Source: a virus | Reading direction: 5' to 3' (one strand) | IMG/VR virus record: IMGVR_UViG_3300020417_001379 | Location: 5,021 to 69,020 of that record | Length of the DNA stretch: 64,000 nucleotides | Part shown: piece by piece, positions 7,229 to 49,421 of the stretch | How the letters are laid out: each line of letters opens with the position of its first letter | Position numbering within the stretch: the stretch's first letter is position 1 | Program-made: the position numbers and the translations under genes | The notes under the pieces: model-generated | Seen by the model: the letters and a program-made list of their open reading frames with translations, nothing else | Database searches by the model: none | Told to the model about the DNA's origin: nothing

Positions 7229-7238
7229 GCGTGATTGT

Positions 7239-16142: not shown

Positions 16143-17159
16143 CTATCCTCTCCTTGTCCCATCATCTCTCCAACATGGGCCTGTGCAAAGGTCTCTTGCT
16201 TGTAGTTTAGCGCAAGAAGTAACCTGCTCATAATCCATGAGGCTGTTAATGTGGAATCGTGAAGTATGCGGGTTGTAATCTCTCCAACCCAAAGTGCCTA
16301 TGAAGTCTGCTATCTTATCAGCAATGTCTGACTTTTCTTTAGCGGTTAAAGTAGAAGGGTGAGCAAACCATCTTAGGTTGTCGGCCAAGTGTTGAACCAA
16401 AGCAACCCTTACATGGTGTCTTGGGTTCTCGTGCCTCATAGCCTTGTCGAGACACGGTGGAATAGGCACTTGGTCTAATGTCCCTATGTCGCCTTCAAAG
16501 GGTGCTTTAGCCTCATAGAATACAGTTTGCTGTGGGTTCTTAGCAATCCACTTTACTATACTGAAAGCAGAGTCTCTTGCCTTGCCTCTAAAGGGGTCTA
16601 AATTAGAAAGGCTCTGTTGTGGTTTGTTAGGAATATCATAGCCAAGCGGGTCTTCGTGGAATCTTTTAGCGTCTATATTTACTGCCCACTTCTTGCGTGT
16701 AACATTGTAAGTGTCGGGGACTCTCGTTAATTTTTGTGGGTTGCCCACACCATCGAGAGTCTTAAGTCCCTTAGCCATTTCATTCTCATAACGAATAATA
16801 TGTTTGGAAATAGCAGTCCCCTTTACAGGCTTCTCAAATAACTCATGCACATGGAATCCCCTACCTGTCGCAACGACTCTTACATCTCCTGTTAGTTTAG
16901 ACAGCAATTGTGCTACATCTTTTTTAACCTGTATAATATCGTATTCTTCTGTGGTATCGAAGTCCCACCATGCTCGGTCTATCACAACCGATTCGGGGTC
17001 GAATTTCCAAGACCGTGTAGGGTGTCTTCTCTCAAAGGAATACAAAGAAGTGTATATAGAAGACTTGCCGTTCAAATTACTAATGTATGTATCGAAGTCG
17101 CTACGGGAATCACAGGGCTTACGGCGTAACCCAATCTCTCGCGGAAAATTAAGAAGCAT
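16143..17159 (-). CDS. archaeo-eukaryotic primase: catalytic domain fused to a PriL-CTD-like Cys-rich domain
   Basis: WDFD and TGRGFHVH catalytic motifs; C-terminal PPC...SC....C..C. Confidence 0.85.
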   Translation of the reverse strand: MLLNFPREIGLRRKPCDSRSDFDTYISNLNGKSSIYTSLYSFERRHPTRSWKFDPESVVIDRAWWDFDTTEEYDIIQVKKDVAQLLSKLTGDVRVVATGRGFHVHELFEKPVKGTAISKHIIRYENEMAKGLKTLDGVGNPQKLTRVPDTYNVTRKKWAVNIDAKRFHEDPLGYDIPNKPQQSLSNLDPFRGKARDSAFSIVKWIAKNPQQTVFYEAKAPFEGDIGTLDQVPIPPCLDKAMRHENPRHHVRVALVQHLADNLRWFAHPSTLTAKEKSDIADKIADFIGTLGWRDYNPHTSRFHINSLMDYEQVTSCAKLQARDLCTGPCWRDDGTRRG

Positions 17160-23214: not shown

Positions 23215-24717
23215 TTAGTCTCTCGGTAGTGCTACCATAGCCTCACTTAGTAAAACAAGTGTAGCAATGGAAATAGCGCTACGAATAGAATTGACTACAA
23301 CATCTACGGGGTCAATGACTCCCGCCTCTATCATGTTACACCATTCGTTAGTCTTAGCGTTGTATCCTATACCGTTGAATTCGCCGTCAATCATTTCCGG
23401 CTCTACGAAAACATCACAGTAGGCCGCAATTAAATTAAGGGGCGTAGTAAATGCCTCTACAATCAGAGGGTTGTCTGAGTCTTTACTCAGAGCGTATAGT
23501 AGTGAGCCACCACCTGCAATAATACCATTGCGTTGTGCCGCCCGAACCGCATTAACCGCATCGTCAATGCGCTCCTTACGCTCTCTCAATTCTACCTCGC
23601 TGTCTGCCCCCACAATAATAGAGGCTACACCGCGCTGTAATCTTGCTATCCTACGAGCATAGACTTGCTTATCCCAAGAAGACTCGGCACTTTCCATCAA
23701 TTCTTGTAGGCTTTCAATCTTAGAATCAACAGCATTAACTTTACTCTCTATAACGCACGAGTCTTTCTTACACACTACTGTATCAGCGTAGCCCATAGAA
23801 AGGTCTCCTTCTAATGACTTACCGTTTTCTTTTGCGTGTATTTCTCCGCCCGTTATCGCTTGTATATCCTCAGCCCAAGCCCATTGTGTATCTTTCATAC
23901 CCGCCATCTTTACAAGAGTAGCGTTTATCTTACCCTGCACTACATTAATTAATAAGTTAGGAAGAATAGCGGGGTTGTAATCAGAACAGACAATAAGCAA
24001 GCCTCTACCTTCTTGTAGAGAGGCTTCCATAGCAGGGACTATACTCTCAAAAGTATTTATCTTATCCATGCTAATCAGAACATTAGCGTTGTTAATACTC
24101 TCGGTAAAGTAGGGACTTGCCGACCCTGCCTGTATATCCAAGCCTTCTGTTATCTCATAGTATGTCTCATAACTACTACCGTTCTTCATAGCAATAGCAC
24201 CCTCAGAACCAATCTCGTGCATTACTTCTGCAATGAGACCGCCTAACTCACTATCGTTGTTAGCGGAAATCGTAGCCACATCAATAAGGTTAGCCAACGC
24301 CTCACACTCTGTTGAATTTTCTTTAAGCCCTGTAATAATCTTCTCGGCATCAGCCTTCAATGTATCTACTACCTCTACGGGGTCATCTCCCGCATTAATC
24401 ATATCCATGCCTTCGTTGCATAGAGACTGAGCAATAACAGTAGCAGTAGTCGTTCCATCACCGGAAGAATTCTGAGCCTGTGTAGCCACTTGCTTAATCA
24501 AGTCAATGCCCATCTGCACATACGGGTCGGGGTCATTGACTGCTTGTGCTATGCTAACCCCATCATTTAGAATGAGAGGAAATGAATCCTCTTGCTCTAT
24601 AATGACTGTTGTTGCGTTAGCACCGAGAGTATTCTTGACTGCGTTAGCGACTTTATTTACTCCCTTTAGTAATTTCTTTCTCGCTTCTTTACCCGTTATA
24701 AGTGTATCTTCGCTCAT
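23215..24717 (-). CDS. groEL: group I chaperonin (GroEL/Cpn60-like)
   Basis: NDGVSIA, GDGTTTAT, ERIDDAVNAVRAA, AGGG, GVIDP. Confidence 0.95.
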   Translation of the reverse strand: MSEDTLITGKEARKKLLKGVNKVANAVKNTLGANATTVIIEQEDSFPLILNDGVSIAQAVNDPDPYVQMGIDLIKQVATQAQNSSGDGTTTATVIAQSLCNEGMDMINAGDDPVEVVDTLKADAEKIITGLKENSTECEALANLIDVATISANNDSELGGLIAEVMHEIGSEGAIAMKNGSSYETYYEITEGLDIQAGSASPYFTESINNANVLISMDKINTFESIVPAMEASLQEGRGLLIVCSDYNPAILPNLLINVVQGKINATLVKMAGMKDTQWAWAEDIQAITGGEIHAKENGKSLEGDLSMGYADTVVCKKDSCVIESKVNAVDSKIESLQELMESAESSWDKQVYARRIARLQRGVASIIVGADSEVELRERKERIDDAVNAVRAAQRNGIIAGGGSLLYALSKDSDNPLIVEAFTTPLNLIAAYCDVFVEPEMIDGEFNGIGYNAKTNEWCNMIEAGVIDPVDVVVNSIRSAISIATLVLLSEAMVALPRD

Positions 24718-24950
24718 ACTATCGCCACCACATCACTTTCTCTCACAGCGAAGACATTGTTATAGCGGGCAACGGGAATTAGAATGTCGCCCTTTGTAAC
24801 TATAACTTTGTCTTCTACCTGTGCGTTTATGCTTACATCTGTTCCTTTTGAGACTATCTCAAAAACATGAGACTGTCCCATAATGAGACCGCTCTCGGTC
24901 TCTTCATCTTCCTGTCTCTTAATCAGTAGAAAGTTACCTAATGCTCTCAT
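24714..24950 (-). CDS. groES: co-chaperonin (GroES/Cpn10-like)
   Basis: MRALGNFLLIK...TESGLI...VRESDVVAIV; overlaps groEL start. Confidence 0.9.
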   Translation of the reverse strand: MRALGNFLLIKRQEDEETESGLIMGQSHVFEIVSKGTDVSINAQVEDKVIVTKGDILIPVARYNNVFAVRESDVVAIV

Positions 24951-26143
24951 CAATCCCACCCATCGGCCTCAAGTGTGGCCTGTGTGGTCTCGGTTACTGC
25001 TTCTACCTCGTCAAACGGCCACCATCCATTCACGGACAATCTTTGTTCGTCAGTATCTCGTGTTCTCCATGTTTGTCCCACGAGTAGAATTTTTGTTCCA
25101 ACGGCAAAGTCAATGCGGTGTGCATCAGAAGCACCAACATAGACTTCGACAACGGGGGCAGAGGAAGTTATATCCAAATCAGCACAGACAAGGGTAAAAC
25201 CGCCGTTATCTCTTGGGTCAATGTGAATGACCTCAGCGACAACGCCAAGTATTCTATCCCACCACCCGTCAGAACCGTTGAATGTATCGTAGTATGTTCG
25301 CAAGTCATCAAGGCTCGCAACCATGTTCTCTTCTCCTAAGTAAGAAGCCATAAGTCCCTTCGGGTCAGACTCAAAAATGTCTGCCTTAGACGGGTCAATG
25401 GTGAAATCGGCCATGTCCGCCTTAACATAGGCTCTTGTGCCGTCCTTACCAAGCCTTAGCGCCATAGTTAGTGGCGTGAAGGTAGGGAATTGAATGTCCG
25501 CAGAGTTACCCTGCGCTGTTACGGTCATAGCCTTCCAACCATCTTGGCCTTCTTGCCTACCGAAGAATAGCGAAGTGCGCTCTCTCTCGTTCTGTGGTCT
25601 CGGTGCGCCAAACTTGAAGTTAGGGTCTCCGCTTGGGAAGGTCTTGTTATTCTTATCCCAAACACAGTAGAAATGTGTAATACCGTCTAACTGCATAGCG
25701 TTAGAAGGTAACTCGCTCACGGTAGAAGTATCTTCACCGTAAAAGTCTTCTCGTGCGTATCTTGTAAATGTCCCATCGGCATTATCTGTGTAGAGAACAA
25801 CCGTTCCGTTATCTACAAAGGTCATCCTTACTTCCTCAGAGGCATTCATCAATTGGTTTTTCATCTTGTTGTAGAGAATCTTACCCCATTCTTTAGGTCG
25901 TGGAACGCTTACAAACATACCTTCCATCTTGGAAGCACCGGAGCGTGCGAGTCTTGCGTTGGCGTTGCGTATTTTACTACCCGCTACCTTTAGCGCGAGA
26001 GCGTAAGCATCTGCTTCACTCTTACCTGCACTTGCCCATGCTGAACCCTGTTCTGCAAGAACCGAATCGGTCATTGCCTTTAGGGTCGCAACATCGGTAT
26101 TCAATGTCTTTGCTGTTCTCTCAATTACTTTCTCGTCTATCAT
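24950..26143 (-). CDS. putative RPA/SSB-like OB-fold ssDNA-binding protein
   Basis: OB-like beta patterns (VVAEVIHID...ILLVGQT...LSVNGW); acidic tail; replication cluster. Confidence 0.55.
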   Translation of the reverse strand: MIDEKVIERTAKTLNTDVATLKAMTDSVLAEQGSAWASAGKSEADAYALALKVAGSKIRNANARLARSGASKMEGMFVSVPRPKEWGKILYNKMKNQLMNASEEVRMTFVDNGTVVLYTDNADGTFTRYAREDFYGEDTSTVSELPSNAMQLDGITHFYCVWDKNNKTFPSGDPNFKFGAPRPQNERERTSLFFGRQEGQDGWKAMTVTAQGNSADIQFPTFTPLTMALRLGKDGTRAYVKADMADFTIDPSKADIFESDPKGLMASYLGEENMVASLDDLRTYYDTFNGSDGWWDRILGVVAEVIHIDPRDNGGFTLVCADLDITSSAPVVEVYVGASDAHRIDFAVGTKILLVGQTWRTRDTDEQRLSVNGWWPFDEVEAVTETTQATLEADGWD

Positions 26144-39596: not shown

Positions 39597-40563
39597 TTAG
39601 GCTACCGTCCTTGCTACTGCATCTGCCCATGCCTTGCCCTTAATGCGCTGTCCTGTTCCCATTATTGCGCTCTCTGCTCGGCGGTCATTCACTCGTCCGT
39701 CTTTGGTAGTTACCCAAGCGTGGTCTATGAAGTCGGTTACGACATTTACTGTTTGGAACAGCGTTCCGTCCATGTCGCCAATTTGGTTCTGTGGCTCTGC
39801 CTCAAGTGCAATCACTTGGTCGAGAATATTCTTGCCTCGTGTAGCAAGCCCGTAAGGGTTCTCTTTTGAAATCAATTCCTCGTTGGTCTGAATCGGCAGG
39901 TGTTCCAAGTAAAACTCTACTCTCTCGCCAATATCCATCTCTACTTCCAACATACCGAGAGCGTCCTCAGCCCATTGGTCTAACATTACATTAGTCATCT
40001 TCATGGCTTCCTTCATCTTCTCAATCTGCTCATCCATTTTTGAGGTGTGCCTAATTGTGAAGTAGTTACCTGTCTTTTTTGCTTCCCTCAGAACCATGTT
40101 CATTTGGTTTCCACAATTCATTCTAATGCAGTTAGGTATAACCCTAATAGCACCCGAACCATCGTGCGCATTTGTAAGCGTCATAAAGCCTTGAACCGGC
40201 TCATTTCCGTTAATCAGAATCTCATCCGGTAGAGCCAAATTGACCCAAAACTTTGCGCCATTATTTACTACCCCTATTTTATTAAACTCAAGGTCTGTTA
40301 CCTGCGTCAATTCGTGGGCTAACTGAGTTACTTCTTGGTGTTGCTTTACATGGTATGACTTACCTACTACTCCTAAGCAATCGTGCGTATCATCTCTAAA
40401 CACACCTCTATGCTTTTGGGTCAATACCTTGCCCCTTGTATCATATAGAGGCTCTAACTGAGCCTTCCATGTTAAGCCTGCGTTTTCGCAAACCTCTTTC
40501 GCTGTCGTTCCTATTGCGTCTTGGCCGAATGACCCCCACGCTTCTTGTCTTGCTGTCGTCATG
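39597..40563 (-). CDS. DUF932 / phage-plasmid-like protein (TIGR03299-like)
   Basis: AGLTW, R.DT..LGVVG..Y, TNAHDGSG, RMNCGN, IRHT motifs. Confidence 0.85.
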
Positions 40564-40812
40564 TTTTCATCTCCTGTATCCGGCTTCTTTGCCGATATTT
40601 GCTCCACCGACCATCTGCATTTAAAGATTCCGATTCGACCACGCAAGCACCCCTCGCGCGTATAGTATAGTAAAGAGAAATATACCCGTCAAAAAACGAC
40701 CACGCAAACAGAAAACGCTTGGAAGGGGTCATAGAGCCACGCAAATTGAAAATAGGTAGTAAGGTAGTGCCGACTATCTAAAACGGCTATATATAGCACT
40801 ATTTGGAATTAC

Positions 40813-40975
40813 GCTACATTTTGTAGCATAAAAAATTGTAGCAAAGAAATTGTAGCATAAACTTTGTAGCATAGAAATTTGTAGCATAAAAATTTGTAGC
40901 CTGCGCTCGCTCGCCTGCACGCTACAAAAAAAATTTGTAGCAAAGGGGGTCAGCCAAAAAAACCGATGCTACAAA
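40813..40975. repeat. tandem TTGTAGC repeats (~15-bp period), left boundary cluster
   Basis: Six direct copies at 40821-40900 plus inverted GCTACA copies. Confidence 0.9.
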
Positions 40976-40996
40976 CTTTTTTACTCGCAAAAAAAA

Positions 40997-41434
40997 TCAT
41001 GCGCACTTTCGGCACATGACTCTCATTGGGTTTGAAGTTATGTCGGACTTATGCACCTTTTTACTTTCATGGGCATTTATGTTTGCATTGCATCCAACGC
41101 ATACGCCTCTCGTATTGTAGAGCATCGAAATCACAGGGGCACTTTCAATAAAATTGGGGTCAATTTTCATTTTAGGCGCGACTATTTTAGGCGTTATACT
41201 TTCCTTGCGTAGTGCCCTCGCAATCTTGTTTGACCTGTGGTTGGGGCAGGTTTTCTTGTGGCTACGCCCCTTAATAGCGCCACAGCATGGGTGTCTCTCT
41301 CGACCTTCTGAATATCTACCATTGCTTGCGCCTAATCGCTTCTTTGAATCTCCGGTAGCGAGTCCGCCTTTGCGTCCTGCTTCCCGCTTTTGCTTGTCTA
41401 TCGGCTTGAATGTGCCGTCCTCATACCTGCGCAT
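40997..41434 (-). CDS. basic Cys/His-rich nucleic-acid-binding protein
   Basis: REAGRKGG, HPCC...H..C, CVGC...CRKC; divergent from the large RNA candidate. Confidence 0.55.
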   Translation of the reverse strand: MRRYEDGTFKPIDKQKREAGRKGGLATGDSKKRLGASNGRYSEGRERHPCCGAIKGRSHKKTCPNHRSNKIARALRKESITPKIVAPKMKIDPNFIESAPVISMLYNTRGVCVGCNANINAHESKKVHKSDITSNPMRVMCRKCA

Positions 41435-41520
41435 AATACGACCACGCAAGCATTTGCTTATGAACCTGTCGGTCAAGGCCAAAAATCGGAAGGTTTAAGT
41501 GCGGATAGCCTTCCGCCCCA

Positions 41521-42180
41521 ATTACTGCTACCGAGTAGTGGTGTTGGGAGATGGCTCGCCATCCCCTTCGGGACTGAACGATGTAAGATAGTCAAGTAAG
41601 TGAGCGAACATGAGATAAACAGAACGGAAGCACCCGAGCGGAAGTAGTTGAGACACGAAAAGCGACCAAAGGAGGAATACTCAGCACCTATACGCCCCCA
41701 CAGGGTAGGAAAGGAGCATTACTCACCGAAAGACTCCAAGCCTCGCAGGTAGCGGGTGAATCAGAGCAACGAGACACTTGAGGGATACTGAGCGAGGGTT
41801 GTTATGAATCTGTGGCTACGCCTGCCTCTCATTACCGAGAGGTGGGAAAGTCATCATTCATAGGCGAATTAGAACGGGTTTGGTCGGACGAGCAAGGGGT
41901 GTGGAAATCCCTTGAGCGGTGTCGGCTGAATCTTAGTAAGTCCATACCTTAAGCAAGTATGGGGGAAGTAGTATGAAGTGATGTGGCGAAAGAGCAATGA
42001 CCTGCCCACCATCCACCTCAGCGTAACGCGGGGCAATGGAGCGAAATGGTGCGGAGAGGGAGCGAAAGCGGTAGTTAGGTTGAAGGCGTAGGTGAGGGCG
42101 TGGTAAGCCCAAGACCCGTAAAGCGTGCGGTTGGTGGACAGATAGCAGTAAGGCATTCGGAGAATGTTCAGTCCCACCTA
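41521..42180 (+). ncRNA. candidate large ornate ncRNA (~630-660 nt)
   Basis: No credible ORF; promoter TTTAAGTGCGGATAG at ~41495; end pairing 41522-30/42143-51; long-range pairs and many hairpins with UUCG/GNRA-type loops. Confidence 0.65.
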
Positions 42181-42557
42181 TATTTAATGGTGAAAGAAAA
42201 ACAAGAAAATTGTAGCATGAACAAAAAGTAGGAGGTTATTTGTAGCATATAGAAATGTAGGATTGGATTTTTGTAGCAAGAGGCGCGATACCTAACCTTA
42301 ATAAAGGTTTTCTTTTAGGGGTTATTTGTAGCATACTAACTTTGTAGCAAAACACTTGGCGGTGGTATGGATACTTGGTGCATTTTTCACACTAACTTTT
42401 TTTTGTAGCATAAGCATTTTTACACGCGCAACATTTTTTTGTAGCATACTTTTTTTGTAGCAAAGCACGACACGACATTACGCTACAAATTTGTAGCATA
42501 GGGGGGAACAGACTTGCTACAAAAAAACCTTATAAGGGCAACCCCACTCGGAGTATC

Positions 42558-42764
42558 ATGGACAATTACACGAAGCGAGATGAAGCACACACGCATTGCG
42601 ACCATTGCAGGACAGAATACTTTAAGTGTTATATTAGTGAGTTTGGGTATAGCCTGTGGGTATGCAGATGCACCCAAGACGCTTGCCCTCATGGGTTTTA
42701 TAATTTGATGCTCGACAACAGAATTAGCAAGGTAAAAGGCTCGGAGCGTAATTTAGTTTGGTAA
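42558..42764 (+). CDS. cassette 1: small Cys-rich protein
   Basis: ATG 44 nt after motif-promoter at 42514; CDHC...CRC. Confidence 0.65.
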   Translation: MDNYTKRDEAHTHCDHCRTEYFKCYISEFGYSLWVCRCTQDACPHGFYNLMLDNRISKVKGSERNLVW

Positions 42765-42932
42765 AACCCGCAAGAATAGGCAAAAACCGCCTTTTTTCGC
42801 ATGAAAGCAAAAATTTGTAGCATAAGTTAGCGAAAACCCCGTATTGCTACAAATTTGTAGCATAAGGGGGTAAAACCGTAGCCTACCATGCTACAAAAAA
42901 GACTTAAGTAGGGATACCCCGTCCGCTCAAAT

Positions 42933-43088
42933 ATGACGACATGGACGGCAATGACCCCCGCGTATATTGATATGCTATTGGACACGAGACACAGTAAAGA
43001 GGCAAAAGATTTAGCCATTAAAGAATTAATGAAAATGGCTCGTGCCCTTGACGCTTACCAACAGGTATTCGGTATGGAAGAAGAATGA
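42933..43088 (+). CDS. cassette 2a: small helical protein (51 aa)
   Basis: ATG 45 nt after motif at 42888; MTTWTAMTPAYIDMLL...ELMKMARALD. Confidence 0.65.
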   Translation: MTTWTAMTPAYIDMLLDTRHSKEAKDLAIKELMKMARALDAYQQVFGMEEE

Positions 43089-43129
43089 AGCAGGACAAGA
43101 CTTATAAGCAAAACAGGAGTGGAAGAAAT

Positions 43130-43285
43130 ATGGAAGAAGACGAGACGACAGAATATGTGGATATAACACCGAGTAACGAAGGTATGGCTATGATGCTATG
43201 GGAATTAGCAATGAACCATACTGACTATGAAAAGAGAGAATGGGCCAAGATGAAATTAATTAAGGGCTATTTAGCAGGTGAATGA
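43130..43285 (+). CDS. cassette 2b: small helical protein (51 aa)
   Basis: Own TTATAA at ~43102; MEEDETTEYVDITPS... Confidence 0.6.
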   Translation: MEEDETTEYVDITPSNEGMAMMLWELAMNHTDYEKREWAKMKLIKGYLAGE

Positions 43286-43508
43286 GTAACGGAGAATGAG
43301 TAAGACCCAACCCCGCCTCGCCCACGAAGAGGAAGCGTGGAGGACAAGTGCGGGGGGGCATCATTTTTTCGTGCGCGCAAAAATTTGTAGCATAGTGCTT
43401 TTTTGGGGCTACGCATATACGCTACAAATTTGTAGCATACGGAAGTAAATACACACGCTCGATATGCTACAAAAAAACCTTATAACCCCCTACCCCTTCG
43501 GCTCTAAT

Positions 43509-43790
43509 ATGGAGAAAGACGACATACGACTTGACGACTGCGGACATATTGTGATGGATAAGGACATGACTGACCTTTGGGTTAGAACCCCGAAAGGTTT
43601 GATTGCTATACACCTTAACCAATACACCGGCCTTTACCACATGACTGCTTGGAACACCCATGAAGGAAATAAGATGAGCAAGAAAAAAGAGGGCAACGGA
43701 TATTTCAAGATAGCCCAAGAGATGAGCGGAACATATAGCGAGGAAAAAGCAAGATACAAAACAGGCATGATACACACTCCCACGCCTTGA
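43509..43790 (+). CDS. cassette 3: hypothetical protein
   Basis: ATG 45 nt after motif at 43464; followed by GC hairpin and T-run. Confidence 0.65.
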   Translation: MEKDDIRLDDCGHIVMDKDMTDLWVRTPKGLIAIHLNQYTGLYHMTAWNTHEGNKMSKKKEGNGYFKIAQEMSGTYSEEKARYKTGMIHTPTP

Positions 43791-44000
43791 GATACTTTGG
43801 CGTTAGAAGTCGGATACTCGACCCCCCAAAGCGCGCGGGGGGTCGGGTGGCGCATTTTTTATACCCGTTAAAAATTTGTAGCATAGCAACAGTAGGTGTT
43901 GTAAAACACACTAAGTTACAAATTTGTAGCATACCGACCGTGAGAGTAGGATACCTATGCTACAAAAAAACCTTATAAGGGGGTATGGGGTCGCAGGACT

Positions 44001-44264
44001 ATGGAGCGAAGGTTCGCAATGGTATGCCTGCACGAGACAGACACGATGGAAGACGGAACAGTTAGATATATTCCGTGTTGCATTAAAGAGGGAGTCGCCG
44101 GTTACTTCCCTATGAGGGGAAACCCCGACAAGTTACAAAGCGCTTGGTATTGGGGTAAGACGCATGAGGAATGTTCCGAGATATGCGATATTTACAACCA
44201 AGACTTAGGTTTAACGGCTGAAGATGTTAGGGAGATTATAGCAAGTAGCATGAGACTTTCTTGA
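44001..44264 (+). CDS. cassette 4: hypothetical protein
   Basis: ATG 44 nt after motif at 43957; hairpin at ~44270-44300. Confidence 0.7.
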   Translation: MERRFAMVCLHETDTMEDGTVRYIPCCIKEGVAGYFPMRGNPDKLQSAWYWGKTHEECSEICDIYNQDLGLTAEDVREIIASSMRLS

Positions 44265-44439
44265 ATTGGGGCGGGGGTTCTCAACCCCCCCGTTCCTTTT
44301 GGCTCTCAAAAATTTGTAGCATAGGGATTCCTTTTTTGGGCGTAACGAGGTGGGCTACAAATTTGTAGCATACATACCGTAACCACTACTGAGTTATGCT
44401 ACAAAAAAAGGTTATAACCATATACCCCAACCGCGATAC

Positions 44440-44757
44440 ATGAAGCGACAACGCGACATAAGGACGCACAACCGAGACAGGTTCAAGGGCGCGCGCCTCA
44501 ACGATGAAGAAAGAAAGGAATGCGCAAGCATCATGGAGAGACTACGAGGGCAAAAGCCTGCGAGATTCGCAACAGGCACAAGCACACTTGTAGTCCTCAA
44601 GGAGATTGCATGGAGAGAAGCAGAAGGGTCAAGCGGGGACTTGATTTGTTGTATTGTCCGTAATGGTGTGGAAAATACTTGGATGCTACGAGGCAAGAAC
44701 CAAATGAAAGGCAGTAAAGAAAAATTACGAGTAAAGAAGATTCTATGGGGATACTGA
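44440..44757 (+). CDS. cassette 5: basic hypothetical protein
   Basis: ATG 44 nt after motif at 44396; hairpin at ~44775-44803. Confidence 0.7.
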   Translation: MKRQRDIRTHNRDRFKGARLNDEERKECASIMERLRGQKPARFATGTSTLVVLKEIAWREAEGSSGDLICCIVRNGVENTWMLRGKNQMKGSKEKLRVKKILWGY

Positions 44758-44948
44758 GATTCTACGGGTATTGTGGGCGGGGGGACGCATCACCCCCCGT
44801 CCCAAACCTTATGCACGACAGAAATTTGTAGCATAGCGTAACAAACACAACAACAACACACACTACAAATTTGTAGCGTATCTCGGTAGAGAAAACAACG
44901 CTATTATGCTACAAAAAAAGGTTATATATGGATACCCTGTCCGCTAAA

Positions 44949-45238
44949 ATGTAAGTGGGGGGCGAACTGAACACTCGCCCCCATGAAGACCGGAGTTATA
45001 CCCCCGAAGGCAAGTAGGGCAGGTAAAGAGCCGGTGCGTCCCTAACTGCAACGCCAATAAGACAGGATACACGCACACGAGAAGACCCCTCTCCGAGTCG
45101 AGTGAAAAAGGGTGGCCGATATTTTCAGAAAGCGTAACACTTACCCGACCTGCCCACGAGTTAGGCATAACGCGTGGGTTGCCCCTGTTTAGGGGTAAGT
45201 CCCTGTTTGTTCGCAGGCGATTGGTCGGCAATTTTTTT
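44949..45238 (+). ncRNA. cassette 6: candidate structured ncRNA (~290 nt)
   Basis: Standard cassette promoter at 44906 but ATG is followed immediately by TAA; many complementary segments; ends in a T7 run. Confidence 0.65.
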
Positions 45239-45524
45239 AGCGCTCATAAAAATTTGTAGCATATCTTTCTATTGTTTCCGCACGCTACTGAAAGAATAAA
45301 ACGCATGACTGCTACAAATTTGTAGCAATTATTTTATTTCTTCATATATGTTTTAGATTACTTCTCTATTACTAAAAATACTAATGAAAGAATTAATTAA
45401 TTACAAATTTGTAGCGTAGTATAGCGTTTAATTAATTTTGTTGGCTACAAAAACAAAAAAATAAATAACGATGCTACAAAAAAACCTTATAAGCAAATAC
45501 CTTTAGGGTCGGTTTGGTGATACA

Positions 45525-45680
45525 ATGCTAACGCGCAGACACTTTGAGGCGATTGCCTCTATTATACAGATGAAAGAAAGCCGAACAGAAAAAATGATTG
45601 CATACGAGACCATTAGGCCGATTTGCATGGAGAACCCCCGCTTTGATGAAGCCAAGTTTCTCAAGGCTTGCGGGATTTGA
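45525..45680 (+). CDS. cassette 7: small protein with NPRFD..KF..AC motif (51 aa)
   Basis: GGTGA SD; MLTRRHFEAIA...NPRFDEAKFLKACG, a pattern I recall from small phage proteins. Confidence 0.7.
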   Translation: MLTRRHFEAIASIIQMKESRTEKMIAYETIRPICMENPRFDEAKFLKACGI

Positions 45681-45883
45681 GTAGGTTGGGGGTTCGCCCC
45701 CTTCCTCTCTTTTCTTTGGCCGTTAAAAATTTGTAGCATAACGACAACAAAAAAGGCGCGCGTTGCTTACACGCACGAGGCTACAAATTTGTAGCGTAGC
45801 CCGCTTATGCGTGCGCGCGGGGCGTAACACCCTTGACCTATGCTACAAAAAAAGGTTAAATAGGCATACCCCTTCGTCTGTTT

Positions 45884-46027
45884 ATGTGCGAGTATTACGA
45901 CAAGTATTGGGCATTAGTGAAGGCAATAAGAGAAAGCACAGGCAAGGGAACAGAAACACTTGTCTGTATAGATGATATATTATATAACATAGACACAGGC
46001 CAACTCTTCTGCCCTTACGCGCCTTGA
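45884..46027 (+). CDS. cassette 8: small protein (47 aa)
   Basis: ATG 44 nt after motif at 45840. Confidence 0.6.
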   Translation: MCEYYDKYWALVKAIRESTGKGTETLVCIDDILYNIDTGQLFCPYAP

Positions 46028-46282
46028 GCGGAGCGCGTTTGCGCTTATAATCTTTTCTTTAGCGCTGAAAAATTTGTAGCATAACCCCGCAACGGTTTTG
46101 CGCGCACGCGCTTTTCTTGATAAGCCACAAATTTGTAGCATAGGGTGTAAGGGTTTGCGCGCGTGGCGTTTGCCGTATCACACTACAAATTTGTAGCATA
46201 CTTACTCATACACGCTGAAGCGAAAAAGCGCGCGACCTATGCTACAAAAAAACCTTATAAGTAGATACCCGCTCCGATAAAC

Positions 46283-46447
46283 ATGAGCAAGAGAGGCGAG
46301 ATAGTCTTCACCTACAAAGGCATATTAGAGTTATACGACTGCACCTGCTGTAAGGGGACAGATGAATTCCCCGAAGTAGAGCCGGACGAGTCCGGCGTTT
46401 ATTGCTACACCTGCGGGGCTTCAGCCTCGTGGCCTAAGCCCGCATGA
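46283..46447 (+). CDS. cassette 9: small Zn-finger protein (54 aa)
   Basis: ATG 44 nt after motif at 46239; CTCC...CYTC. Confidence 0.65.
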   Translation: MSKRGEIVFTYKGILELYDCTCCKGTDEFPEVEPDESGVYCYTCGASASWPKPA

Positions 46448-46760
46448 GCGAGAGGCCAAATTTTGTAGCATAATTTCTTTAGCCCGTAAAAATTTGTAGC
46501 ATAGCGTGAGCGTTGCGCGCGCAACGGCGCGTAAGTATATAGGTTACAAATTTGTAGCATAGCGCGCTTAACCCTACGCCCCCGCACCTTACTGTATTAG
46601 ACTACAAATTTGTAGCATAGACCGCTTGTGTTCCCCGCCCCCCGTTGCCCCCACGAGTTATGCTACAAATTTGTGGTCTGCCTACTCGCTATTGCTTCCC
46701 CGCTATGCTACAAAAAAACATTATAAGGGGATACCCACCCCGATAGAACGAGGTATCAAT

Positions 46761-47078
46761 ATGGAAGATATGAGATATGAAATGAAAGCAGACTGCGGGG
46801 ACGCTCAAGAGCGTTCCTATGAGTGGGAGCAACCCCACGAAAAAGAGGCGTTTGAAAACGCCGTAGATGGCGTTAAATGCCCTTGCTGTGGGTCAAGCGA
46901 CCTTGTAATGTGCGACCGTGAATTAATGGGTAGAGACACCTATTATGATATGGAAGACGATTGGGGCTACGAAACCTACGAATACAGGTTTTGGGCGCAA
47001 TGCACAGGCGTAGAGAGCGGTGAGTGCAAGCATGACGAATGGATAATGATTTATGGGGAAGTCGAAATAGATTACTGA
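46761..47078 (+). CDS. cassette 10: acidic Zn-ribbon protein
   Basis: GAGGT SD; CPCC...C...C; hairpin at ~47087-47105. Confidence 0.7.
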   Translation: MEDMRYEMKADCGDAQERSYEWEQPHEKEAFENAVDGVKCPCCGSSDLVMCDRELMGRDTYYDMEDDWGYETYEYRFWAQCTGVESGECKHDEWIMIYGEVEIDY

Positions 47079-47435
47079 AAAGGTTTGGGGGGGCTTTGCC
47101 CCCCCTTACGCTTTACTGTGTAAATATTTGTAGCATAGGTTTTTTTAACCCCTAAAAAAATTTGTAGCATAGCGACACACGCGGGCGGGCAAACGCACAG
47201 AGTAACAACGCTACAAATTTGTAGCATAACAACGCTTAACATACCCACCCCCTACCCCCTAAACGCTAAGTTACAAATTTGTAGCACCGACCCCCTACAC
47301 AACGCGCGCGCGAAAGACGCAGGAGTTAAGATACAAATTTGTAGCATGGTTGGTTGTAACGCAAGCGCGCGAGCGAAAAACAAACCGCGCTATGCTACAA
47401 AAAAGAGTTATAAGGGAATACCCCCACCGCCAATC

Positions 47436-47630
47436 ATGCCTTACTTGAGCATGGAACAAGCCGAAGAAATGTATGATGATATGATAGACGAAATATACGG
47501 AGAGGTAAAGGTTGGAGTAACATTCAACGCCTCTCGCGTATTGAAGGAGTTAGACCCCATTGCGTATAGATGCGGGTTCAACGACTACATGGACAGCCTC
47601 TTTGAAGACGGTTACACCTTAATGGATTAA
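47436..47630 (+). CDS. cassette 11: small acidic protein (SRVLKELDPIAYRCGFNDY motif)
   Basis: ATG 44 nt after motif at 47392. Confidence 0.7.
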   Translation: MPYLSMEQAEEMYDDMIDEIYGEVKVGVTFNASRVLKELDPIAYRCGFNDYMDSLFEDGYTLMD

Positions 47631-47637
47631 GCGAGTA

Positions 47638-47668
47638 AGTCCCGCCTTCGGGCGGGCTTCGCTTTTTT
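47638..47668 (+). terminator. hairpin terminator AGTCCCGCC-TTCG-GGCGGGCT + T-run
   Basis: cUUCGg stem-loop then TTTTT; similar hairpins follow most cassettes. Confidence 0.7.
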
Positions 47669-48094
47669 AGGGCGCAAAGATATTTGTAGCATGGCTTTTT
47701 TTAGACTTTGAAAATATTTGTAGCATACGCTTTTTTAGACTCTGAAGAAAATTTGTAGCAAGCGGTTTTTAACAAAAAAAAAAATTTGTAGCATAGCAAA
47801 AAAAAATTTGTAGCATAGCAAATTAATAAAAAATCGTCAAAAATTAATAATTAATAATATGCTACAAAAAAATAATAATTTGTAGCATAGATAACCCCGA
47901 AATCATGCTACAAAAAAAGGCCGAAATCATGCTACAAAAAAAGGTCAAAATTAGTTATTAATTAACCCTAAAAATTAGGCTACAAAAAATACGCTTGGCG
48001 CGGTCAGAAAAAAAGCAAAAACCCCGAAATTAGCCCCTAATCGGCGACACTATCATAAGGGGTGCTTATCTCCCAATTGATGAGGTGAACAAGT

Positions 48095-48859
48095 ATGAAT
48101 ACTGTATTACTGAACATATGCCTGCTGATAGACGCCCTCTCTGCGGATGCCGTAGAGAAGGTCAAGGAGACTTCCAGAAGTCTCCGAAAGGAGGGATTCA
48201 AAATCCCTTCAATGAACCACAAAGTCTTGGTTCTACATGGAAGCGCTCCATTCCGCTCATTGAGCGAAATGGTGTCGCCTGCTTGGATTCGTGCTTCATT
48301 TATGAAGCACAACGCCATTGAATGGGTCTCAGCAATGAGAACCCGATGTTCATGTGGAGCATGGTTCGCTAAGGGTGAAGTTATCTGCCGTTCCTGCAAT
48401 GGCCGATTATGGAACACCGGAGAAGGACAGTCATTGAGAGATGGCGAGTCTAAGGCTTACGAACAGGGAATCAAGGGTGGTATATCCTGCCTTCGATTAA
48501 TCCCATTCGTAAGAGCAAATTGGGGCGTTCTCGATTGGAGAGACGCACGATTCGGAATTACCCAACCACGACTTAGGAAGGGCAACCTTCGCAATGGGTC
48601 GAATGCTAAGGTGTGGATGATGCCTCTCGGTCGCTCTGCTCACAAAGTAGCATGGGCACTTGAGAGACTCGGACAAACTGAGGAAGCCAAGACATATCGA
48701 GCAATGTCGAGAGATGCTCAAGTATGGCGAGAAGTGGTCTTCGTTGATGCTGTCCATTCATGGAACAATGACGAATTGATTGACTTCGCTGTTGATGTTG
48801 CATTCATTCCTCAATTAGAGGAAGCAGGTCTTCGATACCGAAGGCAACCAATAGCCTAA
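48095..48859 (+). CDS. hypothetical protein with Zn ligands (254 aa)
   Basis: GAGGTGA SD; CSC...CRSC; follows the right boundary repeat cluster. Confidence 0.65.
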   Translation: MNTVLLNICLLIDALSADAVEKVKETSRSLRKEGFKIPSMNHKVLVLHGSAPFRSLSEMVSPAWIRASFMKHNAIEWVSAMRTRCSCGAWFAKGEVICRSCNGRLWNTGEGQSLRDGESKAYEQGIKGGISCLRLIPFVRANWGVLDWRDARFGITQPRLRKGNLRNGSNAKVWMMPLGRSAHKVAWALERLGQTEEAKTYRAMSRDAQVWREVVFVDAVHSWNNDELIDFAVDVAFIPQLEEAGLRYRRQPIA

Positions 48860-49052: not shown

Positions 49053-49421
49053 TTATTTTATAAACTTGCCTCTATACCCAACCGACTTTTTATAGAAGGC
49101 TACCCTTTGGCCGTTATGCGTATCTTTTTTGCGCAGTATCGTTTGGTCGGCAATCATGGGTCTTACAATTTGCCCAAGAACGGAAGGTGTAATCTGCTTC
49201 CATGTTTTGGGAATGCCCTTCGATGCTTCCCAAGCAAATTCTTCACTCGTGCGCCATTCATTTAGGAAGTCGCTCTTTATCACATTCTCTATGTGTATTT
49301 GGTAGGTCTGTCTCTTGGGAAGTGGGCCATGCGCTCTTACGGAGCGGTCTTGCCGATTGAATTTTACTCCCGTTATCTTGCTGTGCGTCCTTCTTCTATT
49401 CTTTGGTTTTTTGCCCGCCAT
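49053..49421 (-). CDS. basic putative winged-helix protein
   Basis: WRTSEEFA...TPSVLGQIV; downstream of terminase. Confidence 0.5.
   Translation of the reverse strand: MAGKKPKNRRRTHSKITGVKFNRQDRSVRAHGPLPKRQTYQIHIENVIKSDFLNEWRTSEEFAWEASKGIPKTWKQITPSVLGQIVRPMIADQTILRKKDTHNGQRVAFYKKSVGYRGKFIK

Follow-up and report, generated by a model that had tools for sequence, protein, structure and literature searches.

In the window, the 64,000-nucleotide stretch of DNA analysed here (positions 5,021 to 69,020 of the viral record IMGVR_UViG_3300020417_001379), the block at 40813-47990 was confirmed to be a motif-framed array of small genes, as an earlier sequence-only reading had observed. Related viruses carry arrays of the same kind with lineage-specific words, and cargo genes turn over between conserved frames. 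With a probability of roughly 0.55, we favor an explanation in which the block comprises autonomous, probably early units that have a private operator, a regulator encoded within the array, and frames that serve as recombination patches.

A motif-framed array of small transcription units

The word GCTACA was found 124 times on both strands of the window, compared with 32.4 +/- 5.6 times in shuffled sequence, and 0 of 100 shuffles reached 124. By program, the block holds 77 copies of GCTACA/TGTAGC (28 plus and 49 minus), close to the earlier hand count of about 75, and the 61,842 bp outside it, in a viral genome of 69,020 bp, hold 50. The perfect 16-bp palindrome GCTACAAATTTGTAGC occurred 7 times and its core ACAAATTTGT 17 times. 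The real repeat unit is longer than GCTACA, namely the 11-mer TATGCTACAAA; with at most 1 mismatch it matched 61 times, where 2.02 matches were expected and no shuffle exceeded 5. Of these 61 copies, 60 fell within 40820-47986. All 11 motif starts listed previously proved correct, with TGCTACAAAAAA beginning at start+1 in each, and three copies of TGCTACAAAAAA lie beyond the 11 units (at 47860, 47906, and 47930). Misassembly is unlikely, because the stretch is present in 18 DNA runs of 7 studies and two metagenome contigs agree with it at 99.8%, over 3,632 bp and 1,791 bp. The features of the block are compiled in Table 1.

Table 1. Coordinates (window numbering) of the array features
Feature	Coordinates	Strand	Content
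TATATATA box	40788-40795		Faces leftward replication-gene block; adjoins left-border tandem 11-mers
Left border	40813..40975	-	10 GCTACA copies
Left-border 11-mers	40822-40900	-	Six, in tandem, 14-15 bp spacing
Left-border palindrome	40921-40941
Single 11-mer	40965-40975	+	Mirrored 'T-run, spacer, A-run, motif' module behind gene 40997-41434
Leftward cassette	40997..41434	-	145-aa basic protein with Cys clusters; Met at 41434 (ORF listed from TTG at 41482)
ORF-poor transcription unit	41494..42128	+	GGTTTAAGTG box, first T 41494; RNA ~605 nt
Motif cluster	42211..42500	-	9 motif copies and one palindrome, between 605-nt RNA unit and cassette 1
Cassette 1	42514..42824	+	Promoter 42514-42537, 68-aa ORF 42558-42764, T-run, inverted motif 42814-42824
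Cassette 2	42888..43394	+	Promoter, ORFs 42933-43088 and 43130-43285 (51 aa each), hairpin/T-run, inverted motif 43384-43394
Cassette 3	43464..43885	+	Promoter, 93-aa ORF 43509-43790, hairpin/T-run, inverted motif 43875-43885
Cassette 4	43957..44323	+	Promoter, 87-aa ORF 44001-44264, hairpin/T-run, inverted motif
Cassette 5	44396..44835	+	Promoter, 105-aa basic ORF 44440-44757, hairpin, inverted motif
Cassette 6	44906..45263	+	Promoter, ORF-less RNA ~290 nt, T-run ~45233, inverted motif 45253-45263
AT-rich spacer	45264..45470	.	4 motif copies, two TGAAAGAAT repeats (45289, 45385)
Cassette 7	45471..45740	+	Promoter, 51-aa ORF 45525-45680, hairpin/T-run, inverted motif
Cassette 8	45840..46083	+	Promoter, 47-aa ORF 45884-46027, T-run, inverted motif
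Cassette 9	46239..46503	+	Promoter, 54-aa Cys-rich ORF 46283-46447, inverted motifs 46462, 46493
Cassette 10	46705..47171	+	Promoter, 105-aa ORF 46761-47078, hairpin, inverted motifs 47127, 47161
Cassette 11	47392..47693	+	Promoter, 64-aa acidic ORF 47436-47630 (phrog_9294), hairpin/T-run, inverted motif
Right border	47683..47990	.	Four or five tandem 'T-run, 14-15 nt, inverted motif' modules (47683-47817)
Right-border motif copies	47858, 47904, 47928, 47976	+	Ahead of ORF 48095-48859

Promoters, terminators, and RNA

Each of the eleven rightward units reads 11-mer, A-run, TTATAA, and start, and the complete grammar proposed earlier (motif, A-run, 2 nt, TTATAA-like box, cargo, hairpin or T-run, AAAAATTTGTAGCATA, and 1-3 palindromes) was present in 11 of 11. 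Cargo sizes of 47-105 aa also held, unit 2 having two 51-aa ORFs and unit 6 none. The consensus ATGCTACAAAAAAAccTTATAagggnATACCC is common to the 11 promoter copies. In 10 units the first T of the box is followed by the start at 28 nt (8 units) or 29 nt (2 units); the box-to-ATG distance was longer in cassettes 7 (38 nt) and 10 (40 nt), and GAGGT precedes the ATG of the 105-aa ORF in cassette 10. Judged from their letters, the unit promoters are of archaeal BRE/TATA type with a predicted leaderless geometry.

All six pieces from two RNA libraries lay inside predicted units, none crossed a frame, and three ended within 1 nt of box +28 (at 41522, 44949, and 45516), although these pieces are assembled contigs of one study, whose start, end, and strand are unprovable and in which DNA carry-over is possible. 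The 605-nt RNA was represented by a 607-nt contig (X19; 41524-42128, depth 42.4, first letter ~41522 = box +28) and by a second contig spanning 41679-42127 (X20); its strand was assigned solely from the fit to the promoter. This RNA gave no Rfam match and a fold z-score of -0.43. Cassette 6, which reads ATG TAA at 44949, was covered by contigs 44951-45157 (first letter ~44949) and 44959-45135, and its RNA had a fold z-score of -2.19, with 4 of 200 shuffles as good. A contig end at ~45516 in cassette 7 compares with box +28 at 45515, and another contig covered 44030-44233 in cassette 4. The claim that the cassettes are self-contained was thus borne out, each having its own BRE/TATA-type promoter and terminator, with the RNA-library pieces confined to the predicted units.

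The 3' end of a unit consists of a hairpin or T-run, 12-16 nt, the inverted 11-mer, and then lopsided palindromes. A run of at least 4 T was located within 45 nt upstream of 24 of the 46 copies of TTTGTAGC, and the gap between T-run and word was 12-16 nt in 13 of these 24. The single leftward cassette has the same module in mirror image, and in every unit, this one included, both flanking words turn their A-rich end toward the gene body. This tight gap and orientation, together with the 4-5 stacked modules of T-run and word after the last cassette and the 9 word copies after the 605-nt RNA unit, would also suit a polar insulator, in which the bound protein is an orientation-dependent roadblock that forces termination at a T-run lying 12-16 bp upstream of it. 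This protein would also help to load TBP/TFB at the next promoter, and co-regulation would be secondary. Reb1/TTF-I at eukaryotic rDNA units follow a similar logic. Moreover, the distance between word and TATA box in the relative G001 exceeds that in the window by about one helical turn, so the word would remain on the same face of the helix. However, the coupling of T-run and word is absent in several lineages (e.g., the GTTACAAAAC group), the A-run preceding the word may be no more than a bidirectional terminator's T-run, and a roadblock is not required, because T-runs alone terminate archaeal RNA polymerase. We consider insulation an unlikely primary role of the word.

Lineage-specific words and a candidate regulator

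The genome (69,020 bp, rated 100% complete) is that of a marine virus with archaeal-type genes. Its clamp loader best matched RFC small subunit chains (E = 8e-31), compared with E = 8e-13 for phage gp44 and E = 8e-8 for bacterial gamma, and an ERCC4+HhH protein matched XPF and Hef chains. No relatives were found among 185,579 prokaryote genomes. Magroviruses as described carry MCM, whereas MCM was not found in this virus.

The same kind of array, recognized by a 7-mer repeated 10-81 times, was present in 39 of 40 related viral contigs extending at least 3 kb past TerL; control upstream segments had a repeated 7-mer in 15 of 51 cases, in no more than 14 copies. The relatives use at least 15 types of word; these are lineage-specific and mostly of the form nnn(C/T)TACAAA(A/T), and different words were found in viruses only ~0.02-0.05 changes per column apart on the TerL tree. 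Between viruses with different words, nucleotide identity of 96-98% stops ~340 nt past TerL, and the far array flank (DUF932) is again 84% identical. The left-border tandem array, plus TATATATAGCC, is also present in G001.

A dedicated binder would be dispensable if the 11-mer were part of a long strong promoter and bidirectional terminator kept uniform by gene conversion. In keeping with this, the cassette 11 cargo is 91% (aa) and 87% (nt) identical to that of G001, with nucleotide similarity confined to ATG-to-stop and the promoter in each genome's local style, a pattern expected from intragenomic homogenisation; the TATA-to-start segment (GGGnATACCC...), for which no need is known, is conserved as well. 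Such concerted evolution nevertheless appears quite unlikely, given that 49 of the 77 copies stand in the orientation without a TATA box, that palindromes and tandem copies spaced 14-15 bp apart typify protein-binding sites, and that the word differs between near-identical viruses while TATA box and geometry are unchanged.

The 145-aa protein (40997-41434) is the sole array-embedded gene conserved across motif types, with homologues in 15 further loci, placed within the array or at its edge. Between viruses with different words, only its homologue still aligns inside the array, at 58.6% aa and 67-69% nt identity where TerL is 90-98% identical (nt). An AF2 model had a mean pLDDT of 72 (83-91 over the C-terminal 50 residues), and Atlas scores were below 0.9. 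A Foldseek search against PDB gave no match with E below 1.9, Pfam gave none, and PHROG gave one weak match of unknown function (E = 0.0017). From these comparisons, the Cys-rich basic protein is our best candidate for a motif-binding regulator, although its divergence alongside the word could also mean that the whole module is just swapped or fast-evolving. ORF 48095 is a poor candidate for the word binder, as is the 122-aa ORF beside the terminase, which is 98% identical while the word changes. The earlier idea of a single DNA-binding regulator fits the finding that one word frames all units; who the binder is, we only infer.

A host factor exploited by the virus might bind the word instead, with lineage differences mirroring host species; the ACAAA core is common to most lineages, and no DNA-binding fold was recognised in the viral candidate. 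This is decidedly unlikely: different words in viruses with 96-98% identical packaging genes are hard to reconcile with host tracking, and within the viral genome the 11-mer is all but confined to the array. Because the word varies by lineage among relatives, the putative regulator would rather be virus-encoded.

Turnover of the cargo

None of the 11 cargo proteins was assigned to a named family in Pfam and PHROG searches. The closest complete relative (TerL 91% aa) has array homologues for only 4 of the 11, in a different order, and a fifth homologue elsewhere. Cassette 5 cargo has a 57% aa homologue in G001, where the cassette 9 homologue lies outside the array on the opposite strand; cassette 4 cargo has one in L013/L014, and cassette 1 cargo has none among 82 loci. 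A population variant skips 42562-42762 in cassette 1, other variants carry 23 other letters in place of 42923-43136 in cassette 2, and a variant joint runs from 46285 in cassette 9 to 47126. DNA-run contigs of two other studies have cargo replaced between frames (e.g., 44926->45243); for cassette 6, ~392 other letters take the place of 44926-45243 in X9, X14, and contig L132-135. Contig L086 is without cassette 10, and L087 without exactly cassette 8, its junction lying inside the common 'T-run, A-run, motif' terminator frame. In contig L119 a strongly diverged allele replaces the cassette 3 cargo, with 94-99% identity in the frames on either side, and L069 and L074 differ by a 753-bp indel of two cassettes with a palindrome at both boundaries. 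The prediction that cargo varies while frames are conserved was accordingly upheld both between relatives and within natural populations, with two junctions exactly inside frames. A pooled test showed no statistical enrichment of breakpoints at the motifs, 37 of 82 HSP ends lying within 30 bp (null 0.43, p = 0.40); six clean indels had the word at both ends (2), at one end (3), or only nearby (1).

Perfect 11-bp inverted copies flank each unit, the palindromes amount to a left end plus a right end without cargo, some junctions fall exactly in the palindrome, and G001 carries one cargo homologue at a different locus. These observations could indicate that a site-specific recombinase or transposase moves the cassettes in an integron- or TIR-element-like way, with palindromes as empty attachment sites. 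However, the integron-like proposal did not hold: no integrase was found, in line with the sequence-only reading, nor was a resolvase, and tyrosine/serine recombinases were absent from the complete genome and from PHROG and Pfam scans of 53 and 35 proteins. In contrast to integron cassettes, moreover, each unit here has a promoter of its own. Circular forms were not observed, the palindromes have degenerate left halves, and the L087 junction lies in the T-run/A-run frame, away from the word's edge. Mobility of this kind is very improbable. The turnover pattern instead fits homologous exchange between repeated regulatory frames, like that of the T4 PeSLs.

It is hardly credible that the words serve as replication-origin iterons or as a partition/packaging site rather than as transcription signals: the block does lie at a strand-bias switch, with tandem copies at 40822-40900 and inverted copies flanking a conserved AT-rich spacer (the sole spacer with nucleotide-level conservation in G001, and 77% identical over 207 nt to L081 10847-11048), but the copies hold fixed positions at the promoters and terminators of at least 12 units over 7 kb, strand bias tracks gene direction, and the 122-aa ORF beside TerL stays 98% identical when the word changes.

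Proposed explanation

We propose that a tailed virus with replication genes of archaeal type keeps its variable, probably early genes in this block, and that host RNA polymerase would read them as autonomous one-gene transcription units. The canonical BRE/TATA promoter of each unit is placed so as to start transcription at or beside the start codon, and transcription would end at the hairpin or T-run. TATGCTACAAA may be the operator to which a sequence-specific DNA-binding protein, itself a product of the array, binds. The word stands immediately upstream of each BRE and is oriented toward the gene; it recurs, again oriented toward the gene, 12-16 bp past the T-run, and it is also found in the spacer palindromes. 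Because it occupies promoters, sites behind T-runs, and spacers, one protein could switch all units and the leftward replication block together. At the 3' sites the bound protein might also stop read-through, keeping neighbouring units independent. Since the frames are repeated at least 11 times, they could also be homology patches, and recombination between them, the presumed mechanism, would delete, insert, replace, and reorder cassettes. An early timing and a host-takeover or anti-defence function of the cargo are purely conjectural.

The early-gene regulatory sequences of archaeal viruses resemble the array frames. In PMC11065993, virus-specific regulatory sequences around strong BRE/TATA precede early single genes, and the wHTH protein Aca8 is the proposed repressor at them; PMC2839356 and PMC4122927 offer the T4 PeSLs as a further precedent. 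Related viruses of this kind thus swap tiny genes in and out while keeping virus-specific frames.

A repeated word marks both ends of each unit

The hexamer GCTACA occurs 124 times in the window when both strands are counted, compared with 32.4 ± 5.6 in shuffled sequence; 0 of 100 shuffles attained 124. The sequence-only reading had seen these copies as concentrated in the block at 40813-47990 (the array), and the counts agree: 77 copies lie there (28 on the plus and 49 on the minus strand), versus 50 in the remaining 61,842 bp of the single-contig 69,020-bp genome. All 11 motif starts that it had assigned to the rightward one-gene units (cassettes 1 to 11) were correct. Misassembly is unlikely, given the presence of the stretch in 18 DNA runs from 7 studies and its 99.8% match to two independent metagenome contigs. 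The unit proper of the repeat was found to be the 11-mer TATGCTACAAA (the word), with 61 copies at ≤1 mismatch (2.02 expected), 60 of which lie within 40820-47986. The perfect 16-bp palindrome is present 7 times and the palindrome core ACAAATTTGT 17 times.

Once oriented, the word copies sort into three classes. Class A copies (plus-oriented, 11 units) have the consensus ctATGCTACAAAAAAAccTTATAagggnATACCC. Class B copies (minus-oriented) follow the cargo (the gene or RNA carried) and a GC hairpin or T-run, and read AAAAATTTGTAGCATA. Class C copies form palindromes, and of their two halves the minus-oriented one (nnCTACAAATTTGTAGCATA) is invariably the better preserved; towards the right of the block, in its second half, they are frequently spaced 57-60 bp apart. 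It follows from these classes that the A-rich end of the word points to the gene body at both the 5′ and the 3′ end of each unit. A mirrored version of the word/terminator module is present in the only leftward cassette, which encodes a 145-aa protein. Tandem word copies were also found at several sites (see the table).

Features of the window and of the related arrays
Feature	Position	Details
2,679-aa ORF	7221-15260	straight behind tape-measure gene
GroEL-type chaperonin and 81-aa ORF ahead of it	23215-24959	chaperonin 500 aa
TATATATA box	40788-40795	faces leftward replication block; tandem word copies adjoin it
145-aa protein gene	40997-41434	leftward, within array
ORF-poor unit	41494-42128	tandem word copies behind it
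GGGnATACCC..tCCG elements	42530-47440	most units
Cassette 6	44949-45240	no ORF
AT-rich spacer	45264-45470	
Cassette 11 gene	47436-47630	64 aa, phrog_9294
Tandem "T-run + word" modules	47683-47817	four to five, behind last cassette
ORF next to array	48095-48859	
122-aa ORF	49053-49421	
RNA-library contig	41524-42128	607 nt, depth 42.4
RNA-library contig	41679-42127	449 nt, second library
RNA-library contig, unit 4	44030-44233	
RNA-library contigs, unit 6	44951-45157 and 44959-45135	
RNA-library contig, unit 7	45519-45657	
Word of the window		tATGCTACAAA
Word of G001, closest relative		ttsGCTACAAAT
Further words in relatives		ttgACTACAAAT; cTACTACAAAT; tTATCTACAAAT; cGTTACAAAAC
Further words in relatives		aAcCCTACAAAAtA; ctGcCTACAAAAc; agACTACAAAAt; GGTTACAAAA; GGTAACAAAT
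Further words in relatives		CTTACCAACAAAT; CCCTACGAAGT; aGTATATAtaC; GGCCAAAA

Each unit has its own promoter and terminator

An A-run, 2 nt and a TTATAA consensus were present in 11/11 units, each of which has its own TATA promoter. The distance from the first T of the box to the start codon (in unit 6, to the start of the ORF-less unit) was 28 nt in eight units and 29 nt in two; it was 38 nt in unit 7 and 40 nt in unit 10, where GAGGT stands ahead of the ATG. These distances are of archaeal geometry: a purine-rich stretch abuts a TATA box whose centre is ~26 nt from the start, which is how archaeal BRE/TATA promoters are laid out. A sigma-70 promoter was ruled out because the gap between GCTACA and TTATAA is 8 nt. 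The virus-specific sequence around the core promoter consists of TATGCTACAAA upstream and GGGnATACCC downstream. The latter belongs to a second conserved element, GGGnATACCC..tCCG, which lies between the TATA box and the start in most units and is common to the window, to the closest complete relative (G001) and to another relative (L005) despite their differing upstream words or flanks; its role may be that of a second operator, or it may result from concerted evolution.

At the other end, 11/11 units finish in a hairpin or T-run, and the next promoter lies 64-255 nt downstream. When the 46 copies of TTTGTAGC were examined, 24 had a T-run of ≥4 T within 45 nt upstream; the gap from T-run to word was 12-16 nt in 13 of these 24 and exactly 14 nt in 7. 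The unit ends may function as terminator-then-promoter composites, as the layout of the RNA-library contigs described below suggests.

The AT-rich spacer between units 6 and 7 is the sole intergenic spacer conserved with G001 (77% nt) and is near-invariant in population contigs. It contains two TGAAAGAAT repeats and has inverted 11-mer copies on both flanks; it is possibly an origin-like element.

RNA-library contigs

The RNA data consisted of assembled contigs from two marine (environmental) RNA libraries of one study. All six pieces fell within predicted units and none crossed a frame (a word-bearing promoter or terminator surround). Three contig ends, at ~41522, ~44949 and ~45516, lie 28, 27 and 29 nt past the first T of the matching boxes (41494, 44922 and 45487, respectively). 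These data are consistent, though weakly, with the unit layout; such contigs prove neither start, strand nor transcription, and may reflect DNA carry-over. Population variants cluster at 42128-42135, and the contig end common to both libraries at 42128 may therefore be an assembly break.

The ORF-poor unit gave the highest depth among the RNA pieces (42.4, versus 4.6-9.7 for pieces outside this RNA). The contig-covered stretch begins 28 nt past a GGTTTAAGTG box without a GCTACA word upstream. This region had no Rfam match, a fold z-score of -0.43 and no nucleotide similarity to G001; it may encode an abundant viral non-coding RNA. Cassette 6 likewise lacks an ORF, with ATG TAA at its start, and its RNA of ~290 nt was represented in contigs of both libraries (fold z-score -2.19; no Rfam family). 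At gathering score, no Rfam family was found in the window, and at E up to 1 the region 40500-48200 gave a single 27-nt chance match.

Close relatives carry different words

A TerL search of IMG/VR yielded 112 relatives, from which 80 loci were kept. In 39 of the 40 loci reaching ≥3 kb past TerL on the array side, a non-homopolymer 7-mer was repeated 10-81 times; on the opposite side of TerL, used as a control, a repeated 7-mer was present in 15/51 segments, with a maximum of 14 copies. The arrays of the relatives contain at least 15 differing words. On a TerL tree of 45 rows, 15 word types require 16 changes, and differing words occur on rows only ~0.02-0.05 changes per column apart (L060/L064, L069-L074/L066-L070 and L027-L033/L031-L032). 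In such close pairs, 96-98% nucleotide identity ends ~340 nt past TerL, just beyond the homologue of the 122-aa ORF, and 84% identity resumes in the far flank (DUF932). A search of IMG/VR with the exact promoter pattern added one extra contig with a single match. The array of another relative, L061, has an insertion (16260-16580 of that locus) with sequence that is tRNA-like by eye (GTTCGATTC).

Words switch rapidly between viruses with near-identical packaging genes, which places whatever sets word specificity, provided that it is virus-encoded, within the array. Within the arrays of the different-word close pairs, only the homologue of the 145-aa protein gene aligns (67-69% nt, 58.6% aa). 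This family of Cys-rich, basic proteins lies in or at the edge of the array for at least seven word types and, judged from these comparisons, is the best candidate for a word-binding regulator. No recognisable DNA-binding fold was seen in the 145-aa protein (AF2 mean pLDDT 72; Foldseek best E = 1.9; Atlas ≤0.83), and no Aca8, wHTH or RHH protein was recognised.

Two other candidates for the binder were rejected. The 122-aa ORF is ~98% identical where the word changes, and it cannot set specificity because identity spans its homologue while the word differs; from its position, it is probably a packaging protein. The ORF at 48095-48859 has homologues in only 6 loci, an Atlas model with pLDDT 0.42 and feature hits ≤0.76.

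Cargo turns over between conserved frames

The sequence-only reading had suggested testing whether cargo varies while frames are conserved, and comparison with relatives showed that it does. TerL of G001 is 91% identical to that of the window at the amino acid level and 80% at the nucleotide level; nucleotide similarity in its array is confined to the frames, cassette 11 (87%, precisely from ATG to stop), the AT-rich spacer (77% over 45235-45439) and the gene at 40997-41482. Four of the 11 cargo proteins have homologues in the G001 array, namely those of cassettes 3 (36%), 5 (57%), 7 (48%) and 11 (91%), and their order is 7-3-5-11 in G001 versus 3-5-7-11 in the window. The homologue of cassette 9 in G001 lies outside the array on the opposite strand, and for the proteins of cassettes 1, 8 and 10 and one of the two of cassette 2 (c2a), no homologue was present among 82 loci.

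When metagenome contigs were searched with the exact promoter pattern, 64 stretches matched; 12 loci from 9 contigs were kept, and the other 52 were set aside as probable chance matches because they held <4 motif copies each. In one locus (L087), precisely cassette 8 is absent, with the junction within the shared frame 'tcttttcttt..aaaaatttgtagcataac'; in another (L119), a strongly diverged allele of cassette 3 lies between flanking frames that are 94-99% identical. A third (L086) is without cassette 10, and other sequence occupies its cassette 11 site. On the contig holding L132-135, the cargo of unit 6 is replaced and its 3′ part relocated. In related populations, the substitute in unit 6 is an unrelated stretch of ~392 nt within the same frames. 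DNA contigs (X9/X14) from runs of two other studies also showed replacement of cargo between frames, for example 44926->45243 with 392 other letters, and further such joints were found at 45886->46462, 46285->47126, 46736->47141 and 42562->42762. In another lineage (L069/L074), a 753-bp indel corresponds to two whole cassettes, with a palindrome at both borders.

No named family was found for the cargo proteins; their Pfam and PHROG matches were sub-threshold or of unknown function. A Lar-like match of cassette 9 (E = 0.086) and a Q-like match (E = 0.015) fell below any cut-off and were discarded.

Recombination and the comparison with integrons

Enrichment of breakpoints at the words, which an integron-like exchange at the palindromes had been expected to leave, was not significant: in a pooled test over 8 close pairs, 37 of 82 BLAST HSP ends in arrays lay ≤30 bp from a word (null fraction 0.43, p = 0.40; Mann-Whitney p = 0.58). 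Among six clean indels, two had a word at both ends, three at one end and one merely nearby. The words lie in intergenic DNA, so that a break at a word looks no different here from a break between genes.

Like an integron, the array lines up small, unrelated genes that all point one way, can be exchanged and are separated by imperfect palindromes. Unlike an integron, it has no integrase, attI or common promoter Pc, each unit has its own promoter and terminator, and the palindromes are 16-19 bp words rather than attC hairpins. Tyrosine recombinase (PF00589) gave 0 matches in the 69,020-bp genome (controls matched in 14 of 14), and serine recombinase (PF00239) also gave 0 matches. As regards a TIR-bounded, MITE-like transposable element, 11-bp inverted copies of the word flank each unit, and PHROG, Pfam and genome searches yielded no transposase or recombinase family. 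Thus, the part of the sequence-only reading that described cassettes, a shared control word and cargo turnover holds, but its "integron-like" label does not: there is no IntI-type recombinase and every unit has its own promoter. Backward joints in DNA contigs (46080->45307 and 47145->46068) fit rearranged relatives, repeat mis-placement or circles alike. Homologous recombination could, we infer, be served by three of the encoded proteins: the ERCC4 nuclease, an exonuclease and a RecA-like AAA_24 protein whose match (E = 1e-5) narrowly misses the Pfam cut-off.

Genome type and host

PHROG and Pfam scans identified the terminase, portal, tape measure, tail tube and tail fibre of a tailed virus; also present were a family B DNA polymerase (PolB), a clamp loader, an ERCC4+HhH nuclease, GroEL, a GroES-like ORF and DUF932. 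The best solved relatives of the clamp loader are replication factor C small subunit chains (E = 8e-31, compared with 8e-13 for phage gp44 and 8e-8 for bacterial gamma), and those of the nuclease are XPF and Hef chains. Both these sequence matches and the promoter geometry argue for an archaeal host. A TerL search of 185,579 prokaryote genomes gave no relative and hence no link to a host. No tRNA was found in the window, nor was a viral TFB or TBP found.

Magroviruses (viruses of Poseidoniales) have an archaeal-type replisome set with MCM in all 26 described genomes (PMC5434244). In the present virus, PolB, the RFC-like clamp loader, the ERCC4 nuclease and GroEL are present, but MCM (PF00493) gave 0 matches in the genome; we therefore did not file the virus there. 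The genome is not T4-like. In the named phage collection, TerL reached only ~25% identity, and the block had no relative except for a 138-nt match of cassette 11. Homologues of the cassette 11 protein occur in rV5-like coliphages, FV3 among them (72% nucleotide identity over 138 nt), and sit there in a row of small hypothetical genes with short spacers. The 2,679-aa ORF behind the tape-measure gene had no PHROG or Pfam match. Ahead of the chaperonin gene, an 81-aa ORF matches the GroES PHROG (E = 4e-5); in the magrovirus paper, phages with a chaperonin are described as lacking GroES, and magrovirus chaperonins are expected to be no different.

Likeness to known systems

The closest parallels come from two described principles. 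Promoter-early stem-loops (PeSLs) of T4-type phages are terminator-plus-promoter modules between small non-essential genes of hyperplastic regions (PMC2839356, PMC4122927). Where close relatives differ by an indel or a replacement, the modules form its borders, and the process is proposed to be driven by homologous recombination from module to module. The array likewise repeats terminator-promoter composites between small genes. Some of its indels and replacements are module-bounded (L087, L119, L069/L074 and the X9/X14 joints), but the pooled breakpoint test showed no significant enrichment. However, its promoters are of archaeal BRE/TATA type with leaderless starts, whereas PeSL promoters are of sigma-70 type, and it adds a lineage-specific 11-mer in promoter, post-terminator and palindrome settings that far outnumbers the promoters.

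Viruses of Sulfolobales and Thermoproteales, and MAGs, have strong BRE/TATA cores with virus-specific flanks, among them inverted repeats overlapping the BRE. Such sequences precede clustered small single genes of unknown function that are early and putatively anti-defence, with proposed repressors of the Aca8 type; the differing flanks imply different viral regulators (PMC11065993). The units of the window share the BRE/TATA core plus virus-specific flanks, but belong to a marine tailed virus, and the word, always in a set orientation, is found at 3′ ends and in spacers as well.

Work on haloarchaeal viruses describes 7 + 2 long, promoter-bearing intergenic repeats (58 and 29 bp) in halovirus HF2, which head long transcripts at positions conserved among relatives (PMC8707807), and a suspected PeSL-like motif in HGTV-1, a TATA-like box plus inverted repeat before most ORFs of one genome arm (PMC3950731). 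The repeats of the window are also intergenic and promoter-carrying in an archaeal-type tailed virus; unlike those of HF2, the word is short, has 61-77 copies, encloses single genes and differs from one close relative to another.

In eukaryotic rDNA, one polar site bound by Reb1/TTF-I serves twice: it lies, frequently as tandem copies, past a T-rich release element, and again immediately before the promoter that follows. The likeness is an analogy of layout only, and no homologous protein was found.

Interpretation

The most economical reading is that the array is a row of autonomous units that would be transcribed by the host polymerase, in which a private operator would link the unit promoters and the promoter of the leftward block to one array-encoded regulator, and the repeated frames would double as homology for cassette exchange. 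This reading unites the regulatory sequences of PMC11065993 with the T4-type PeSLs (PMC2839356, PMC4122927). Three features seem to be new. One is that the word points inward at either end of each unit; another is its constant distance from the T-run, suggestive of a function as roadblock or insulator; the third is the fast switching of words among near-identical viruses. This architecture was undescribed in the full-text literature searched, although Supplementary Data 1 of PMC11065993 may list relevant motifs; magrovirus papers made no mention of promoters, intergenic DNA or palindromes, nor, where this was searched, of motifs.

A stronger proposal, which we regard as unlikely, is a family-wide private gene-insulator code of marine archaeal-type tailed viruses. 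Each lineage would encode in its array a fast-evolving, polar DNA-binding protein, and a 10-12-nt word would bracket each one-gene unit inward; at the 5′ end the protein would gate TBP/TFB loading, at the 3′ end it would act as an RNA polymerase road-block 12-16 bp past the T-run, and word and protein would co-diversify. If this were true, the units would be plug-and-play, recombination between brackets would move any cargo with neighbours undisturbed, and co-infecting relatives would be unable to cross-regulate one another.

This virus group is known from metagenomes alone, and the majority of its genes are unnamed. Word-framed promoters provide a sequence rule for spotting autonomous, fast-turning-over accessory genes and RNAs. 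Such genes are a likely hunting ground, in keeping with PMC11065993, when uncultured marine archaeal-type viruses are screened for functions in host takeover or anti-defence. The finding would show that modular shuffling of the PeSL type is not confined to T4-type phages but reaches a marine virus whose promoters follow an archaeal grammar.
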